A stretch of 5,276 nucleotides of DNA from a virus. The notes under the pieces were generated by a model, which saw nothing but the letters and a program-made list of their open reading frames with translations, was not told the DNA's origin and ran no database searches. The position numbers and the translations under genes were made by a program. This document shows, one piece after another, positions 1 to 5,276 of the stretch. Numbering within the stretch: the stretch's first letter is position 1; each line of letters starts with the position of its first letter. Location of the stretch: positions 1 to 5,276 of IMG/VR virus record IMGVR_UViG_3300045988_121362; one strand, 5' to 3'.

Positions 1-93
1 AGAGTATTCCAAGGCAGACCGTCATCAGACAATCCAAGATTTTTGTAGTCAGAATTACGAGAAGTCTTATAATCATAGTCAGCCTTAGCAACA
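1..93. repeat. Terminal redundancy: nt 1..93 are identical to 5184..5276. This is the overlap of a circular genome written out linearly, unit length 5183 nt.
   Basis: Direct comparison of the first 93 nt with the last 93 nt shows an exact match (agagtattccaaggcagaccgtcatcagac...agccttagcaaca). ORFs run continuously across the junction. Confidence 0.95.
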
Positions 94-746
94 TTAGTTA
101 GCTGGGCATTATATGCAGCAGTACTATTAGCAGCATTACCTTGAGCATACATCATGGCAGCTTGAGCAGGCATAACTACATTCATCATATACTCTTGGGC
201 AAGCTTTTGAGAATCAATATATTCTCCTTGCTTTTTAGCATTTAAAAGATTCTGTTTAACCAGAGCCAAATTATCATTGTAAGAATCAGCAGCTAACTTA
301 TTGGCTAAAGAAATACCATAAGATTCAGCATCAAATTTTTTAGCACTAGCTCCAGCTAAAATAGTTTGGGCAGCTAAATTTTTTATCTGTTCATCACTCA
401 TTTTTTCAGCGATAGCAGCTTGACGATTAGCAGCCTTAGCAGAGTTACCAGCAGCAGTAGCAGACATACCGGCAGTCACACCTTCACCGATATTATAATT
501 TGCGGATAAAGCAGAAGCTCCATTAATAGAACCACCAATACCTTGAGTGGCAGCAAGCATAGGGTTCAATCCAGCTTTTTGCATATCTTCCATTGCCCAT
601 TGATAGCGATGCTGATAATTATAAATATTACGCTGGTTAGCTACCGTTGCAGCATGCCGAGCAGCAGAGTTAGACAAAGCACCACCAATGATAGATGAAA
701 TACCACCAGCAACAGCTCCAGCAGCAGATCCGAGAAAGGAACCCAT
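1..746 (-). CDS. VP2: VP2, the DNA pilot or minor capsid protein. This is the N-terminal 249 codons. The ORF runs off the window start and continues at 5183 across the circular junction, giving a full protein of 266 aa.
   Basis: ATG at 746..744 sits 6 nt after an AAGGAGTG site that overlaps the VP1 stop. I translated the '-' frame by hand from 746 to 1 and found no stop codons. The N-terminus is MGSFLGSAAGAVAGGISSIIGGALS, a Gly/Ala/Ser-rich start typical of gokushovirus VP2. The body is Ala/Gln/Asn-rich. Its position directly after VP1 matches Gokushovirinae. Confidence 0.8.
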   Translation of the reverse strand, partial: MGSFLGSAAGAVAGGISSIIGGALSNSAARHAATVANQRNIYNYQHRYQWAMEDMQKAGLNPMLAATQGIGGSINGASALSANYNIGEGVTAGMSATAAGNSAKAANRQAAIAEKMSDEQIKNLAAQTILAGASAKKFDAESYGISLANKLAADSYNDNLALVKQNLLNAKKQGEYIDSQKLAQEYMMNVVMPAQAAMMYAQGNAANSTAAYNAQLTNVAKADYDYKTSRNSDYKNLGLSDDGLPWNT

Positions 747-752
747 ATAGAT

Positions 753-760
753 CACTCCTT
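753..760 (-). promoter_or_regulatory. Shine-Dalgarno site for VP2 (AAGGAGTG). It overlaps the VP1 TAA stop at 761..759.
   Basis: Read on '-', the sequence is TAAGGAGTGATCTAT-ATG. This suggests VP1 and VP2 translation are coupled. Confidence 0.6.
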
Positions 761-2447
761 AGAAATGTCCAATCATACCAGGAATACCATACATAGGCAT
801 AGGACGGATACATTTAAGATTGAATTTAACATCAAGCAAGAAATGAGGATAGGACGGAACAGCAACAACACGGCTGATCGGAGGATGATCCTGTATAAAT
901 TCATCCGACAAAGTAGGCAGAGTAGCAAATTTTTGAGAAAGATGCCAAATGTCTAAAGGCTCCTTATAAGTTGAGCGGAATTGACCGGTAATCAAAGACG
1001 GCTTATAGCGATATTCAGCATAACGCTCTTGATAACCAAATACCTTTTTATCTTCATCATTGCCTTGGCAATAAATTTCAATATTTTCTATAGCCTGTTC
1101 ACCAAGGTGAGCAAAGGACGGCCAATAAAAATCCAACACATCCGAGCGTAACCACATTCTATTTATACCTTGCTGGTAAGTCAAATCAGCACGAACATTA
1201 ATCAAGCCAATAACATAACCAAATTCAGAGAAAGATTTTGTAAAGGCATGATAGCGTTGAGCATTTAAGCCATATGCAGCTAAATTACCTTGTGGAGTAG
1301 TAGAATCGGTGGAGCTAGTTTGAGTAACCGGGTTGATATTCATCATGCTGCTATGCGATCCGAGGAATTCCGGACGTTGCAAACGAGCATCAGGATTAGT
1401 TACACCGAAGTGAGCCTGAAGTTTTTCTGTGTAACGAGTGCCACCGCGAGCATCAATTTCATAGTAACGTTGCAACATGAAAGCCTGACGCAGTGAGTTA
1501 ATAGTTATAGAAGTTGCAGAAGACAAATCAACACTAACACCATTAACAGATTTAAGAGGGAATTCTTTAGGATTGGCACCAACACCATGAATAGTATCTG
1601 TTTCATAGTTATCAAAACCAAAAGAAGAAAGAGAATTAACGGAAAGATTAGTAGGGAAAAAACCATGATCAACATGAAAAGAAGATGAAATAGCTGCAAG
1701 ATAACCAGCAGGCATAGTTAAAGAAGCATTATCACCAACAACCAAAGCAGCAGTCTGTCCTAATGGCAGATCAACAGCAGGGCCTTTTTGTGGCCAAGGC
1801 AGAGCACCGGTGAAATAATCATATCTTTTTCCACGGGGAGCCGGGTCATACCAATTTTTTACGCCGGACGGCAAACCATAATTAGGATTAGCAGTAGATT
1901 GTCCCATTGGTTCCAAAACTGTATTAGTTTCACCTTTGGAAATCTTTACAGACTTCTGCAGATTTTCATCACGGAACCATTCGTTCCAAATAAGCCAATA
2001 CGAGCGGAAAGGCAAACAATTAACAGATACATTATTAAAATTACCAGAAGCACAAGCTATACCCATATAATCAGGCAGCTTGTTAGTCATATCACCGGTA
2101 AGAGATACAGTAGGAACAAGGTAGTCAGTGGAATCTTCGGGATTTTCCTGCTCACCACAAAGATTTACCCATTTATCATATACGAGCCTAGACGGAACGA
2201 AGAAGAAAAAAGACTCAATATAGATGTTATCCATAAAAGGAACAACCGGAGTAGCCAAACGGCAGAACTCAACAGGATTTAAAGTAAAAGTATCGCCTGG
2301 AATAACTTCATCCACAAAGTAAGGAATAAGCTGGCCTTCGTTAAAAGTAGTTTTGTAAACATGACTTCTATCAAAGACAGAACGGCGAATATTAGCTTGA
2401 GGAATCATCGCAAAATGCGACTGATTAACACGAATATTTCGAGCCAT
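759..2447 (-). CDS. VP1: VP1, the major capsid protein (F-like). It is 562 aa.
   Basis: ATG at 2447 sits 7 nt after AAGGAGA. The N-terminus MARNIRVNQSHFAMIPQANIRRSVFDRSHVYKTTFNEGQLIPYFVDEVIPGDTF matches the conserved gokushovirus VP1 start (RSxFDxSH..KTTF..G.LIP....EVLPGDT). It is the longest ORF in the genome. Confidence 0.92.
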   Translation of the reverse strand: MARNIRVNQSHFAMIPQANIRRSVFDRSHVYKTTFNEGQLIPYFVDEVIPGDTFTLNPVEFCRLATPVVPFMDNIYIESFFFFVPSRLVYDKWVNLCGEQENPEDSTDYLVPTVSLTGDMTNKLPDYMGIACASGNFNNVSVNCLPFRSYWLIWNEWFRDENLQKSVKISKGETNTVLEPMGQSTANPNYGLPSGVKNWYDPAPRGKRYDYFTGALPWPQKGPAVDLPLGQTAALVVGDNASLTMPAGYLAAISSSFHVDHGFFPTNLSVNSLSSFGFDNYETDTIHGVGANPKEFPLKSVNGVSVDLSSATSITINSLRQAFMLQRYYEIDARGGTRYTEKLQAHFGVTNPDARLQRPEFLGSHSSMMNINPVTQTSSTDSTTPQGNLAAYGLNAQRYHAFTKSFSEFGYVIGLINVRADLTYQQGINRMWLRSDVLDFYWPSFAHLGEQAIENIEIYCQGNDEDKKVFGYQERYAEYRYKPSLITGQFRSTYKEPLDIWHLSQKFATLPTLSDEFIQDHPPISRVVAVPSYPHFLLDVKFNLKCIRPMPMYGIPGMIGHF

Positions 2448-2454
2448 TTTAAAA

Positions 2455-2461
2455 TCTCCTT
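2455..2461 (-). promoter_or_regulatory. Shine-Dalgarno site for VP1 (AAGGAGA), 7 nt upstream of the ATG.
   Basis: The '-' strand reads ATTAAGGAGATTTTAAA-ATG. Confidence 0.6.
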
Positions 2462-2568
2462 AATTTTAATAAAAAGCCAAAAAGCACGAGAACGGCATTT
2501 TTGTTATCAAATCAGAAGGTAATTAAAAATAAATAAAAGGCTTATTTTTGAAGGTTTTTCTGATTTTG

Positions 2569-2616
2569 TGTCACCTTGACCAGTTACTATCAAGTAGGTA
2601 ACTGGTCAAGGTGACA
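2569..2616. repeat. Perfect 19-bp inverted repeat with a 10-nt loop: tgtcaccttgaccagttac [tatcaagtag] gtaactggtcaaggtgaca. It lies in the VP3-VP1 intergenic region.
   Basis: The arms at 2569..2587 and 2598..2616 are exact reverse complements. It is 38 nt downstream of the VP3 stop and 122 nt upstream of the VP1 start. Confidence 0.9.
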
Positions 2617-2654
2617 GGATTATTATTCTACATAAGTGAATATTAGCATATAAG

Positions 2655-3098
2655 TTATTTTTGCTCTGATTGAGGCTCTCCTGCTACCGAACCGACAGCT
2701 TCTACCGGACTGTCTACAATAGCCTTCTGTTTTAGGCCTAACTCCTCTAGTCTGGAAGTAACCTTAGGATCAGTAGAAGTCAGAGCATCAAGCAGCTGCC
2801 TTGGATCATTACCGAATTCAGCACGGACGCTGGAAGGCAAATCTGCAAATTCAGCATTAACATTTGCAACGAGGTTGCAGGCAGTTTCATAATCCGGCAA
2901 TAAGGTAGTATCTCCATATTGGAGAGTAGCCGGATCATGAGCACCAACAGAATCTACAATACCGGTAGTATTAAAGTTGGCTATAATATGATGAATATCG
3001 CATTCTTCAGCGAATGTCTGATCAGCAAGCGAAGGCTGCGTAATTTCTACGTGCGGTTTTGGCGGTTGTTCGTCATAAAGCGTATAAAACTTAGCCAT
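2655..3098 (-). CDS. VP3: VP3, the internal scaffolding protein. It is 147 aa.
   Basis: ATG at 3098 sits 8 nt after AAAGGAGAT. It carries the motif set I recall from gokushovirus VP3: ...EECDIHHIIANFNTTGI...LQYGDTT...EFADLPSSVRAEFGNDPRQLLDAL...LGL. The tail is acidic and Glu/Pro-rich. Confidence 0.8.
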   Translation of the reverse strand: MAKFYTLYDEQPPKPHVEITQPSLADQTFAEECDIHHIIANFNTTGIVDSVGAHDPATLQYGDTTLLPDYETACNLVANVNAEFADLPSSVRAEFGNDPRQLLDALTSTDPKVTSRLEELGLKQKAIVDSPVEAVGSVAGEPQSEQK

Positions 3099-3106
3099 AG
3101 CTTATT

Positions 3107-3115
3107 ATCTCCTTT
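3107..3115 (-). promoter_or_regulatory. Shine-Dalgarno site for VP3 (AAAGGAGAT).
   Basis: The '-' strand reads AAAGGAGATAATAAGCT-ATG. Confidence 0.55.
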
Positions 3116-3146
3116 CTTTACCCGACAAGGCACGAGCAACTATTTA

Positions 3147-3174
3147 TGTAAGCGTAGGCTTGCGCCGTGTTACA
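3147..3174. repeat. Imperfect hairpin: tgtaa/ttaca outer stem and gcgta/tgcgc inner stem, with loop ggct.
   Basis: 3147-3151 is complementary to 3170-3174. 3152-3156 pairs with 3161-3165, with one G-T wobble. Confidence 0.4.
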
Positions 3175-3216
3175 AAGTTATAATATAGGCGGAGTGACCG
3201 GCAGCTTAGCACAGTC

Positions 3217-3235
3217 ATACCGGCATAGCCGGTAT
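3217..3235. repeat. GC-rich hairpin ataccggc [ata] gccggtat: 8-bp perfect stem and 3-nt loop. It is followed on '+' by an A-rich run (ataaaaacaaaaaag).
   Basis: 3217-3224 is the exact reverse complement of 3228-3235. Confidence 0.8.
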
Positions 3236-3281
3236 ATAAAAACAAAAAAGACGTCCAACATTACGCTGAACGCCTTTAATG

Positions 3282-3325
3282 TGTTGTGGTATTACAACTT
3301 GCCTTGTTAGCATTATACCACAACA
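3282..3325. repeat. Hairpin with an 11-bp perfect stem (tgttgtggtat / ataccacaaca) and a 22-nt loop. The loop contains a 4-bp inner stem (acaa/ttgt) and the heptamer CAACTTG.
   Basis: 3282-3292 is the reverse complement of 3315-3325. Inner pairing is 3294-3297 with 3304-3307. Confidence 0.75.
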
Positions 3326-3354
3326 TACAAGAGAAGGCAAGCGAACGATTACAA

Positions 3355-3636
3355 TTACATTTTAGCAGTATCAGGGGGAGATGTCAATAATTCAGTGGCC
3401 GTAGAGAGGAGCAAAGTGGGAGATTGTGGGGAAAATACGCACGTTTTGTCATCAAACTCGCCAAGATACATCAAAACGAAGTCCTCATGATAATCATGAA
3501 TGATATTGGAACGCTCCGGAGTAGACGGCTGGTTAACCATAATCTGAAATTGACGGATAGCCATAGCATTATTTTGTTGGGTAAAGGGCGGGTTCATCAA
3601 CTCGCCCTTGCGGTCATAAATACAATAAAGTTTCAT
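3355..3636 (-). CDS. Hypothetical 93-aa protein (Y93) directly downstream of VP4. Its function is unknown. By position it may be a VP5-like protein.
   Basis: ATG at 3636 sits 5 nt after GAGGTG. It is on the same strand as all other genes. I recognise no motif in MKLYCIYDRKGELMNPPFTQQNNAMAIRQF... Confidence 0.6.
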   Translation of the reverse strand: MKLYCIYDRKGELMNPPFTQQNNAMAIRQFQIMVNQPSTPERSNIIHDYHEDFVLMYLGEFDDKTCVFSPQSPTLLLSTATELLTSPPDTAKM

Positions 3637-3641
3637 TTTTT

Positions 3642-3647
3642 CACCTC
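3642..3647 (-). promoter_or_regulatory. Shine-Dalgarno site for Y93 (GAGGTG).
   Basis: The '-' strand reads TTTGAGGTGAAAAA-ATG. Confidence 0.55.
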
Positions 3648-3733
3648 AAAATTTTTTTTCTTAAGCAAAGCAAGAAATTCCTGTTTTGCCAAATGCGGAA
3701 CAACATAATACAGTCCATCGAACAGAACAACCT

Positions 3734-4687
3734 TTATAAACCTAAATTATCAAAATCACGCTCAAATTGTTCCTGCCGATGCTTCATAATCTTCTCCTTG
3801 GCTTCCAGCCTTTTAGTATCGATAACGGCAGCCTTGGCATTATCAGCCTTATTTTGCTTGTATATACTATACCAAACGGGATTGCTGCGCTCAAATAATG
3901 TTTGATAATAACGAGGTATTTTATACTTAGCTCCATTGATAGTAACAAAACCAAGTTTAAAAATATCCTCAGAATAAAGACCGAAATAATCTGCACCTAT
4001 ACCAGGCTTTAAAGAACTGCCAACAAACTCCGGACTAATGCCGAGAGCATCATACATACAAGCGTTTTTACCGGTCTGCTTTTTAAGGCTATATTTAGCA
4101 ACATACCGAGCGGACTCAAATGTAATAGCTCCGACAGTATTATAACCATACGGCCAAAGTTTCTCCAGCGTGGGAGAGCGAAAGAGGTTATAGCCAGCTG
4201 TCAACGCCGAGATTTTGCGAACATCATCAGGAAACCAACCAAAGCACAAAATATGATAATGTGGACGAGCATTAAGATCGCCATACTCGCCGCAGCATAA
4301 AAAGCGGATCTTAGAATTATCATGATAATCTAAATAACGGCGAAGCCGTTTAAAAAACAACTGCAGGTGATCACGATGCAGCGAGTGATCCGCTGGCAAG
4401 CAATCGTCATTATAAGTTAAAGTGATAAAACAATTATGAAGATGCAGCTTTGCTTCGTGGACACAACGAATCGCCCAATCGTTAGCTTTATCCAAACGGC
4501 AGCCTAAACACTGACCGCAGGGAACAACAACAGCATAATTATTAGCTAACTCACTTTTAGCTATTTCAAGCGATTTACCGGACAGATCACGATAGGAAAC
4601 GAAATTAGATAGCTCATACTTACCATTAGCATTAGGAACAGCAGAGCGTTTAGCAAATAAAGGATGAAGGCAAGTCATAATACACAC
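3734..4687 (-). CDS. VP4: VP4, the rolling-circle replication initiator (phiX174 gpA-like superfamily endonuclease). It is 317 aa from the GTG at 4687, or 314 aa from the ATG at 4678.
   Basis: RCR motifs are present: CFITLTY (motif I), PHYHILCF (the HxH metal-binding motif II) and ARYVAKYSLKK (motif III, with two catalytic Tyr spaced as in phiX174 A, YVAKY). A Cys cluster PCGQCLGC is also present. The start is ambiguous. The first in-frame start is GTG and an ATG follows 3 codons later. Only a weak AGAAAG precedes either. Confidence 0.85.
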   Translation of the reverse strand: MCIMTCLHPLFAKRSAVPNANGKYELSNFVSYRDLSGKSLEIAKSELANNYAVVVPCGQCLGCRLDKANDWAIRCVHEAKLHLHNCFITLTYNDDCLPADHSLHRDHLQLFFKRLRRYLDYHDNSKIRFLCCGEYGDLNARPHYHILCFGWFPDDVRKISALTAGYNLFRSPTLEKLWPYGYNTVGAITFESARYVAKYSLKKQTGKNACMYDALGISPEFVGSSLKPGIGADYFGLYSEDIFKLGFVTINGAKYKIPRYYQTLFERSNPVWYSIYKQNKADNAKAAVIDTKRLEAKEKIMKHRQEQFERDFDNLGL

Positions 4688-4696
4688 ATCTTTCTA

Positions 4697-4810
4697 CTAC
4701 ATGCGGATACCGCCACGCATATTTCTTGACTTAAGATTTTTAAGCCGAGGGACAGCATGATTACGAAAGTTCCGACGAGAAGCACCACGAGAAATTTTAC
4801 TTCTTTTCAT
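4697..4810 (-). CDS. Small Arg/Lys-rich DNA-binding protein of 37 aa: MKRSKISRGASRRNFRNHAVPRLKNLKSRNMRGGIRM*. It is a functional analogue of phiX174 J and of gokushovirus ORF8.
   Basis: I translated it by hand. ATG at 4810 sits 8 nt after AAGGAGT (plus 4818-4824). The TAG stop is at 4699..4697. It has 13 R/K in 37 residues and no acidic residues. It lies between X89 and VP4. It is absent from the supplied track because it is under 60 aa. Confidence 0.7.
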   Translation of the reverse strand: MKRSKISRGASRRNFRNHAVPRLKNLKSRNMRGGIRM

Positions 4811-4817
4811 GACGTTT

Positions 4818-4824
4818 ACTCCTT
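4818..4824 (-). promoter_or_regulatory. Shine-Dalgarno site for the 37-aa basic protein (AAGGAGT).
   Basis: The '-' strand reads TTTAAGGAGTAAACGTC-ATG. Confidence 0.55.
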
Positions 4825-4848
4825 AAATAAATACCAAGAGTTAAAAGG

Positions 4849-5118
4849 TTAATTATTTTTTCCCAAAAAGCGGGAGTAGCTTTTCTCTTCCGCCTGCGCT
4901 GCTGCTGCATGGCGAAAGCCATTTACATCATCTGTACCTCTTTTCTGCGTATTGATAAGATCATCCTGCATAGCCAGAGAGATAGCTTTAAGGCTTGCGC
5001 TGCCTTCACGGTTATACTTGCCGGTACGAAACATATCAACGAAATCAACAACTTCTTGAATGAAAGGAATGACTGTAGATACGAGAAAAGTCAAAATAGC
5101 AGTAGTTTTGTTTGACAT
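4849..5118 (-). CDS. Small membrane-type protein of 89 aa (X89): MSNKTTAILTFLVSTVIPFIQEVVDFVDMF... It has an N-terminal hydrophobic helix and a charged C-terminal domain. It is a candidate lysis or membrane-associated protein.
   Basis: The internal ATG at 5118 of the 141-aa track ORF sits 6 nt after GAGGTG (plus 5125-5130). This RBS overlaps the VP2 TGA stop. The 52-codon extension upstream of this ATG lies in a different frame of the VP2 coding sequence and has no RBS. The hydrophobic stretch is at about residues 6-24. Confidence 0.6.
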   Translation of the reverse strand: MSNKTTAILTFLVSTVIPFIQEVVDFVDMFRTGKYNREGSASLKAISLAMQDDLINTQKRGTDDVNGFRHAAAAQAEEKSYSRFLGKNN

Positions 5119-5128
5119 AAAAAACACC

Positions 5129-5276
5129 TCACTTAGAAAAATAACTAGCAATGCTAGAAAACAAACGATTACCAGCACGGGCAAGAGTATTCCAAGGCAG
5201 ACCGTCATCAGACAATCCAAGATTTTTGTAGTCAGAATTACGAGAAGTCTTATAATCATAGTCAGCCTTAGCAACA
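5129..5276 (-). CDS. VP2: VP2 C-terminal end, duplicated by the window overlap. It ends ...GLPWNTLARAGNRLFSSIASYFSK* with a TGA stop at 5131..5129.
   Basis: The '-' frame is continuous with 1..746 through the junction, since window position 1 equals 5184. The stop codon is revcomp 'tca' at 5129-5131. Confidence 0.75.
   Translation of the reverse strand, partial: VAKADYDYKTSRNSDYKNLGLSDDGLPWNTLARAGNRLFSSIASYFSK
5184..5276. repeat. Second copy of the 93-nt terminal redundancy. It is identical to 1..93.
   Basis: Exact 93/93 identity with the window start. Window length 5276 equals 5183 plus 93. Confidence 0.95.

Follow-up and report, generated by a model that had tools for sequence, protein, structure and literature searches.

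The 5,276-nucleotide (nt) stretch of DNA analysed here (the window: IMG/VR record IMGVR_UViG_3300045988_121362 over its full length) raises the question of whether it represents a complete circular phage genome, to which lineage such a phage would belong, and which of its parts may direct replication and gene expression. The evidence presented below makes it very probable that the window is one complete copy, in reverse complement, of the genome of an uncultivated human-gut phage of the Gokushovirinae (Microviridae), and that this genome is a circle of 5,183 nt, to which the assembly added an overlap of 93 nt. Alignment with its relatives shows the genome to derive from that of its clade by a natural deletion. 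It also carries a conserved stem-loop that is a candidate plus-strand origin of replication.

The ends of the window carry the first evidence for a circle. Positions 1-93 are identical to positions 5184-5276 (93 of 93 positions), which leaves a non-redundant unit of 5,183 nt, a size typical of the small circles of Microviridae (about 4-6.5 kb). The first copy of the overlap lies inside the coding sequence of the DNA pilot protein VP2, and the second is redundant and falls outside the unit. Once the unit is circularised, VP2 reads through the junction as a single open reading frame (ORF) of 266 amino acids (aa), from 746 to 1 and then from 5183 to 5129. The exact sequence of the major capsid protein VP1 is present on four ENA contigs. 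Contig k127_29798 (ERR688630/PRJEB7774, human gut; 5,310 nt) consists of the unit plus a 127-nt terminal repeat, and contig k113_180482 (5,296 nt) of the unit plus a 113-nt terminal repeat; both are 100% identical to the unit. The three assemblies, including the window, are opened at different points of the circle, with overlaps of 93, 113, and 127 nt, and in the two named contigs the overlap equals the k of the contig name. As the overlap tracks k and the start points differ, the 93-nt repeat is the signature of a de Bruijn assembly of a circle, and not a biological terminal repeat. The first-pass annotation, made from the letters of the window alone, had proposed exactly this circle, and had named a genuine direct terminal repeat as a finding that would overturn it. 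The identical ends, the open VP2 frame, and the two permuted assemblies agree with that proposal, while the variation of the repeat length with the assembler's k speaks against a genuine terminal repeat. The 5,183-nt sequence is, moreover, already public in other assemblies, where it is unannotated. Its source, the human gut, follows from the contig name (ERR688630.PRJEB7774 human.gut.metagenome), and its GC content is about 40%.

Alternatively, the sequence could be a linear or integrated element, such as a prophage, flanked by a true direct repeat of 93 nt. Two contigs, the 14.7-kb scaffold L082 and the 2.3-kb contig L085, join phage sequence to bacterial genes, and enterobacterial gokushoviruses of the EC6098 type, which are temperate, use the XerCD system of the host to integrate at dif sites (PMC7062461). 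The two joins, however, behave like assembly chimeras. L082 contains 5,248 nt of phage sequence, which is more than one unit, followed by a truncated response-regulator gene in high-GC DNA, and L085 jumps to a different bacterial gene only a few bases from the L082 junction. Both chimeric junctions (L082:5236-5250 and L085 at about 1805-1815) are located at a low-complexity tract, GCTGCTG(G), at the start of VP2 (window about 700-740), and we rejected them as evidence of integration. Chimeric joins at this position could be misread as prophage integration. The genome contains no integrase, and the best dif-like XerCD site in the window matched 17-18 of 28 positions, against an average best of about 17.5 and a maximum of 19-20 in shuffled controls. 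With a repeat length that follows the assembler's k (93, 113, and 127 nt) and a break point that varies by assembly, we consider a linear or integrated element to be highly improbable.

Every supported ORF lies on the minus strand of the window, as the first-pass annotation had stated, in the order VP4, VP5, VP3, VP1, VP2, ORF89, and ORF37. This one-strand layout is consistent with a packaged positive-sense single-stranded DNA (ssDNA). All features described below are on this strand, and their coordinates are those of the window. VP1 (759-2447; 562 aa) matched the full Pfam profile of the jelly-roll capsid family Phage_F (PF02305; 6.8e-170) and phrog_514 (1.7e-210), and among PDB entries it matched the gokushovirus capsid 8DES over its full length (1.4e-163), as well as 9CGM and the SpV4 capsid 1KVP. 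Its N-terminal region contains RSVFDRSH (residues 22-29), KTTF (32-35), and EVIPGDT (47-53). VP4 (3734-4678; 314 aa) is predicted to be an HUH rolling-circle replication initiator (Rep), with matches to REP_ORF2-G2P (PF23343; about 4e-23) and phrog_942 (1.8e-107); a sequence search of VP4 against the PDB gave no match. The motifs FITLTY (84-89), HYH (140-142), and YVAKY (192-196) correspond to HUH motifs 1 to 3, including the two-tyrosine motif. The start of VP4 was placed at the ATG at 4678, in line with the ENA call of 314 aa and in preference to a GTG further upstream in the same frame (4687). VP3 (2655-3098; 147 aa) is the internal scaffolding protein (Chlamy_scaf, PF09675, 8.6e-27; phrog_1642, 7.7e-35), with the motifs ECDI (32-35), YGD (61-63), and LPSSVRAEFGNDP (87-99). 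VP5 (3355-3636; 93 aa) belongs to the ORF5 family (Phage_ORF5, PF20577, 3.4e-21; phrog_1670, 4.6e-24). VP2 consists of a 5′ part at 1-746 and a 3′ end with the stop codon at 5129-5183 (read from 5276 to 5129 in the window as given); it matched phrog_8693 (4.6e-41), is also called at 266 aa in the ENA, and is rich in glycine and alanine (29% combined).

The last gene of this series, ORF37 (4697-4810), encodes a small basic, ORF8/J-like protein that is predicted to bind DNA. It is 37 aa long, has 35% arginine and lysine and an isoelectric point of 12, and matched phrog_10695 (7.6e-6). Its C-terminus, MRGGIRM, resembles those of ORF8 of Chp2 (MRGGIRF) and Chp1 (FRGGIRF) and of phiMH2K (MRGGIRL), and its variation among relatives is mainly found at third codon positions. 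The first-pass annotation had listed the motifs of VP1, VP3, and VP4, the Gly/Ala-rich VP2, and the tiny Arg-rich protein as marks of a gokushovirus-like phage; all of these were recovered, the motifs at defined residues, and the Pfam, PHROG, and PDB matches of VP1 to VP5 are gokushoviral.

The placement in the Gokushovirinae rests on VP2, the Chlamy_scaf scaffold VP3, the Phage_ORF5 protein VP5, the RGGIR tail of the ORF8-like protein, and the match to 8DES. The genome thereby has the gene set expected of that subfamily: a VP2 pilot protein, a Chlamy_scaf scaffold, a Phage_ORF5 protein, and a small basic ORF8/J-like protein. An origin in another lineage of the Microviridae (Alpavirinae, Pichovirinae, or Bullavirinae) would fit the size of the genome, in that 5.2 kb exceeds that of the four cultured gokushoviruses compared (4.4-4.9 kb). 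However, the top PDB and GenBank matches are gokushoviral as well, and no ORF matched the Bullavirinae proteins D, G, or E, with every ORF on the coding strand accounted for and Pfam returning gokushoviral families only. We therefore regard another lineage as a very remote prospect. In a blastn search, 880 Microviridae or gokushovirus records were matched, while a megablast search against GenBank phages found nothing close.

Much closer relatives were found in IMG/VR, where 15 genomes of 5.39-5.56 kb (L002-L016) form a clade with the window, at a whole-genome nucleotide identity of 76-88%. VP1 is 84-87% identical to that of the window at the aa level, and VP4 is 92-96% identical in most of these genomes (85%, over a partial match, in L010). 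By these comparisons, the genome is a further member of a well-populated uncultivated clade and, as such, an ordinary object. Variation within the clade is unevenly distributed. Residues of about 240-306 of VP1 (window about 1529-1728) are hypervariable, with a column identity of 30-44% compared with about 85% elsewhere; this block may correspond to the surface insertion loop that forms the threefold protrusions in Gokushovirinae, and is a candidate receptor-binding region. VP2 (window about 1-700) is likewise more variable than the remaining genome.

The first-pass annotation had described the genes as tightly packed. This description holds in part: the coding density is 87.7%, and the 12.3% of non-coding sequence includes three gaps of 97, 256, and 207 nt. 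These three gaps contain conserved regulatory structures, on which the first-pass annotation is silent, as it is on the deletion described below.

One such gap, between VP3 and VP1, is among the best-conserved parts of the genome and contains a perfect hairpin of 19 bp (2569-2616), with the loop CTACTTGATA on the coding strand. Its folding energy as DNA is -23.1 kcal/mol (z = -7.96), and its stem shows compensatory double changes in L010, L013, and L015. An Rfam scan (E ≤ 1) returned a single chance match, to mir-582 at E = 0.5, which is this hairpin. The loop CTACTTGATA holds ACTTGATA, which is identical to the nick region of phiX174. The decamer CAACTTGATA is the cleavage substrate of the phiX174 gene A protein. 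In the phiX174 RefSeq record, the viral-strand origin is annotated at CAACTTG^ATATT (CAACTTG^ATATTAATAAC), so that the recognition and cleavage core CAACTTG^ATA of phiX174 has its counterpart in ACTTGATA on the viral strand of our genome. The resemblance ends there: the AT-rich spacer and downstream "key" of phiX174 (..TTAATAACACTATAGACCAC) have no equivalent in the window, where the 3′ arm of the hairpin, GTAACTGGTCAAGGTGACA, takes their place.

The hairpin is by no means restricted to this genome. We surveyed 89 gokushovirus loci, including the window, loci L001-L081 (with the clade relatives L002-L016 among them) and L086-L088, and the cultured phages L090-L093. On the coding strand, 80 of these carry a hairpin whose stem has 8 bp or more and whose loop contains CTTG, compared with 3 on the other strand and 1.8 in shuffled sequences; in 76 of the 80, it is located outside any ORF that reaches 90 aa. 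When only the strongest perfect hairpin of each genome was considered, its loop carried CTTG on the coding strand in 68 of the 89 loci and CAAG in none. The outer stems are wholly different between lineages yet remain complementary, while a core, ..CAGTT AC CTA CTTG AT GT AACTG.., is kept. The consensus of the gokushovirus loop is CTACTTGAT(G/A)T, or yCTACTTGAT(G/A)T on the coding strand. In the cultured phages, the hairpin is located at 2904-2941 in Chp2, 3296-3335 in phiMH2K, 512-544 in SpV4, and about 2753-2780 in Chp1, where it is not among the hairpins annotated in the record. An exact-pattern scan of IMG/VR for CAGTT-N-CTTGATGTAACTG yielded at least 120 contigs; among the matches listed, most are 3.8-6.2 kb in length, and a few are 6.7-9 kb, some of these with two copies about 4.6-5 kb apart.

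Since the motif is strand-specific, is shared by phages whose hosts are unrelated, and agrees with the sequence that the phiX174 Rep cleaves (ACTTG^ATA), we favour a plus-strand origin with a nick at CTTG^AT, which we consider moderately probable, over a minus-strand origin or a role in packaging. The competing explanations are that the hairpin initiates or primes the minus strand, signals packaging, or terminates transcription. For other microvirus clades, a 2022 paper cautiously tied conserved hairpins between genes to minus-strand synthesis, by analogy to the primosome site of phiX174 (PMC9865509), and the plus-strand origin of phiX174 is located within gene A and not in a hairpin, unlike the hairpin between VP3 and VP1 described here. 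Conversely, the hairpin lacks the T-run of an intrinsic terminator, and a loop motif that occurs on the coding strand in 80 loci and on the other in 3, in phages of Chlamydia, Bdellovibrio, Spiroplasma, and gut bacteria, fits a phage Rep better than host priming factors. These other roles are, in our view, unlikely, though they retain some weight. More broadly, the conserved stem-loop may constitute the so-far undefined plus-strand origin of the Gokushovirinae, presenting the CAACTTG^ATA site of phiX174 in a hairpin, in a role akin to that of the nonanucleotide stem-loop of circular Rep-encoding ssDNA (CRESS-DNA) viruses; we put this forward tentatively, as a possibility that falls short of being probable. 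We found no description of a gokushovirus origin hairpin in the searchable literature or in the eLife paper on EC6098, but the early papers on Chp, SpV4, and phiMH2K were outside this search, so that a prior description is possible.

The window also differs from its clade in the gap between VP4 and VP5. This gap is 97 nt in the window (3637-3733), against 331-445 nt in all 15 relatives. It contains a remnant of a hypervariable accessory gene of the clade: the last 32 codons, without a start codon and out of frame with VP4, identical at 91 of 97 positions to the 3′ end of a 100-aa accessory ORF in L005. The remnant retains the ribosome-binding site of VP5, GAGGTG. In the relatives, the gap holds a cassette composed of 2-4 tandem 11-nt AAAAGTTGYAA repeats (AAAAGTTG), whose A-tracts are phased per helical turn and end at a -35 box; a near-consensus promoter, TTGACA-17(TG)-TATAAT, the strongest of the clade; and a strong Shine-Dalgarno (SD) site followed by a hypervariable ORF of 83-115 aa starting with MLKDY. 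In at least some relatives, such as L005, the stop codon of this ORF overlaps the ATG of VP5. Roughly 250-350 nt of the cassette are missing from the window (roughly 280 nt relative to L005), and the repeat motif AAAAGTTGYAA occurs nowhere else in it. The deletion junction, TAA|AGGTTGT (TAA|AGGTTGTTCTG; junction TAAAGGTTGTT), shows TAAA(A/G)GTTGT microhomology and lies between the imperfect direct repeats TAAAAGTTGT and TAAGGTTGT of L005, which suggests deletion by slippage or microhomology. The accessory protein family has no annotation, and its homologues were found only on contigs of microvirus size or shorter, confined to the clade.

A genome that has lost such a cassette could be a helper-dependent defective deletion genome, or the deletion could be an artefact of assembly; in either case, the 5,183-nt molecule would not be autonomous. 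The window is the only one of the 16 aligned clade genomes with neither the repeats nor the consensus promoter nor the accessory gene. Two shorter clade contigs from Logan (L094 and L095) fit the presence of the cassette, in that an ORF, or part of one at the end of the contig, stands between VP4 and VP5; the junction pattern was not found in IMG/VR, and microhomology of this kind is typical of replication slippage. On the other hand, the core genes are all intact, the deletion left the ribosome-binding site of VP5 in place, the window retains four further conserved promoter-like sites, and the accessory gene is hypervariable and restricted to the clade, as a dispensable gene would be. The junction is furthermore identical in three assemblies of different k. 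We consider a defective or artefactual molecule quite unlikely, and autonomous viability of the deletion genome likely.

Several considerations weigh against our account of the genome as a whole. The ssDNA nature of the genome, the structure of the virion, and all biochemical steps are deduced from homology. VP4 has no convincing SD site and the strongest promoter of the clade is lost, which makes autonomous viability less than certain. The three agreeing assemblies may share reads or overlap in their read sets (L083 is from PRJEB7774, and the record name of L082 points there), so that the deleted form might be that of a minority or defective genome or, with lower probability, an assembly error common to them. 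Finally, the hairpin could be a complementary-strand origin or a packaging signal, given that the origin of phiX174 is not in one.

The signals for transcription also show conservation. Four conserved promoter-like sites, identified as matches to the consensus, are present in the window, with -10 boxes at about 3871, 3364, 3317, and 1161. The second of these (3359-3387; TTGACA-17-TAAAAT with a TG extension, an 11/12 match) lies inside the 3′ end of VP5 and occupies the same alignment column in 14 of 16 genomes. The third (3312-3340; TTGCCT-17-(TG)TATAAT) is a consensus match in the VP5-VP3 gap and is kept in all 16. The latter site is bracketed by an invariant inverted repeat, GCTTGCC...GGCAAGT. 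About 30 nt downstream of it begins an intrinsic (rho-independent) terminator (3236-3277), in which a GC-containing stem-loop (3277 to 3247) is followed by the U-run encoded by TTTTTTGTTTTT. Its structure is conserved: in an RNAalifold analysis of the 16 genomes, compensatory double changes were observed at two pairs of the stem, each in 6-7 sequences. As this promoter-like site stands just upstream of the terminator, it is conceivable that the pair (3340-3236) makes a phage small RNA of about 67 nt, or it could act as an attenuator of late-gene transcription. Directly after the terminator, a small hairpin, ATACCGGC-TAT-GCCGGTAT (3217-3235), shows compensatory double changes at three of its pairs, in 4-6 of 16 sequences, and is a possible priming site for the minus strand.

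Among the 16 genomes, the 3′ half of the VP5-VP3 gap (window about 3100-3215) falls into two alleles of sharply different sequence, a pattern suggestive of recombination; the form in the window is also that of L003, L006, L008, L012, L014, and L016. Just upstream of the VP1 ribosome-binding site (2455-2500), a short stem, (A/G)AAAA...TTTT(T/C), surrounds GCCGTTCTCGTGC. A compensatory change from A:T to G:C was observed in this stem among the relatives, and the stem may affect translation of VP1 or stability of the transcript.

Between VP2 and ORF37 lies ORF89 (4849-5118), a clade-specific gene of 89 aa with the SD site GAGGTG, which starts 11 nt past the stop codon of VP2. It is kept in all 15 relatives at 88-94% identity, and 88 homologues were found in databases, all on contigs of microvirus size or shorter. 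Its sole PHROG match is phrog_23638 (2.8e-14), a family of unknown function, and no Pfam match was found at E ≤ 1. Residues 1-33, predicted to form a hydrophobic helix with an invariant Pro18, are near-invariant in homologues down to 40% overall identity, while the C-terminus is variable. An AlphaFold2 model placed helices at residues 3-32 and 37-59, with a mean pLDDT of 65, too weak for a fold search. We hypothesize that ORF89 could be a membrane-acting lysis protein similar to E of phiX174. The likeness to E is one of architecture (an N-terminal hydrophobic helix and a variable C-terminus), with no sequence relationship, and ORF89 stands free after VP2, unlike the embedded, out-of-frame E-type gene. 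For its start, the ATG at 5118, which has an SD site and gives a uniform 89 aa in the window and most relatives, was preferred over a 142-aa version that reaches back into VP2. The ORF finder reported lengths of 89-92 aa in 14 of 15 relatives; in L011, an open upstream frame extends the ORF to 160 aa.

A few further candidates did not withstand comparison. The Arg-rich ORF41 (4797-4922), which overlaps the 3′ end of ORF89 and has a weak PHROG match (E = 0.075), is probably not a gene: in 4 of 15 relatives its ATG reads ACG, a substitution that leaves the protein encoded by ORF89 unaltered. Antisense ORFs of at least 80 aa, including one of 164 aa on the plus strand (1788-2282), were rejected because their positions are not conserved among the 15 relatives, three of which have none. 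No tRNA or transfer-messenger RNA was found in a scan of the genome.

With regard to the host, the first-pass annotation had pointed to strong SD sites as a sign that Bacteroidetes are unlikely. These sites are indeed present: AAGGAG precedes VP3, VP1, VP2, and ORF37, and GAGGTG precedes VP5 and ORF89, in each case 6-9 nt upstream of the gene, while the site of VP4 is weak. Strong SD sites, sigma-70-type TTGACA/TGnTATAAT sites, an intrinsic terminator, and a GC content of about 40% together make a host outside the Bacteroidetes (Bacteroidota) plausible, and would fit Firmicutes or Proteobacteria. Most of the promoter-like sites have TG-extended -10 boxes, and the relatives have phased A-tracts. 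Matches in genome collections, where contigs binned into metagenome-assembled genomes (MAGs) consist of the whole phage genome only, came from Clostridiales, Burkholderiaceae, and Gammaproteobacteria bins, and such binning is weak evidence of a host.

From what is established for Microviridae, a life cycle can be proposed. A T=1 capsid of VP1 would package the coding-sense circular ssDNA together with ORF37, and VP2 would pilot this DNA into the cell, where host enzymes would make it double-stranded, as the replicative form. Rolling-circle replication would then be driven by VP4, an HUH endonuclease whose YxxKY motif holds the pair of catalytic tyrosines, through a nick in the viral strand that is predicted at CTTG^AT, within the loop of the 19-bp hairpin in the VP3-VP1 gap. 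Transcription would proceed from host sigma-70-type promoters and across a leaky intrinsic terminator between VP5 and VP3. VP3 would serve as the internal scaffold, and VP5 may act in ssDNA synthesis or packaging.

Gokushoviruses rank with the most common phages of the gut, with thousands of genomes assembled, and one further genome adds little to these. Its parts may be of more use. The CTTGAT-loop hairpin provides a testable prediction for the gokushovirus origin and the nick site of Rep, and could be used as a marker to orient and circularly anchor gokushovirus genomes. The natural deletion indicates that the strongest promoter of the clade and a fast-evolving accessory gene are possibly dispensable, which is relevant to the design of minimal or engineered gut microviruses.

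Among known systems, the genome can be compared with phiX174 (Bullavirinae), whose gene A protein is, by motifs, of the same general Rep kind as VP4 (HUH, YxxKY), and which has an external scaffold D, a spike protein G, and a lysis protein E that the window lacks. The cultured Gokushovirinae Chp2, phiMH2K, and SpV4 share the VP1-VP5 families, an ORF8 basic protein with a C-terminal RGGIR, and an intergenic hairpin with the loop TACTTG(A/T)T. They differ in genome size (4.4-4.6 kb), gene order, and their hosts, which are known. The annotated records of Chp2 and phiMH2K show no ORF of about 89 aa after VP2, though no sequence search for an ORF89 homologue was made there. The enterobacterial gokushovirus EC6098 (the source of 8DES) has a VP1 that is homologous over its full length and the same set of virion genes, but belongs to the temperate, dif-integrating type (PMC7062461), whereas the window has no dif-like site above chance. 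The nearest GenBank phage is Gokushovirus WZ-2015a isolate 72Mk01 from mink faeces (KT264820.1), with about 70% nucleotide identity over 54% of the query. It has the same set and order of VP1, VP2, VP4, VP5, and VP3, a VP1 with 67% aa identity, and a CTTG-loop hairpin, CAGTGGGAACAGTA[CCCTACTTGATGT]; it differs in its length of 5,596 nt and in a VP4 that is just 46% identical. SFFE01000042.1 (L086), binned in a Clostridiales MAG, is a close relative. The IMG/VR clade, exemplified by IMGVR_UViG_3300045988_103061 (L014), shares with the window the order VP4-(accessory)-VP5-VP3-VP1-VP2-ORF89-ORF37, as well as the origin-like hairpin, the terminator, and the promoters, and differs from it in carrying the cassette between VP4 and VP5.

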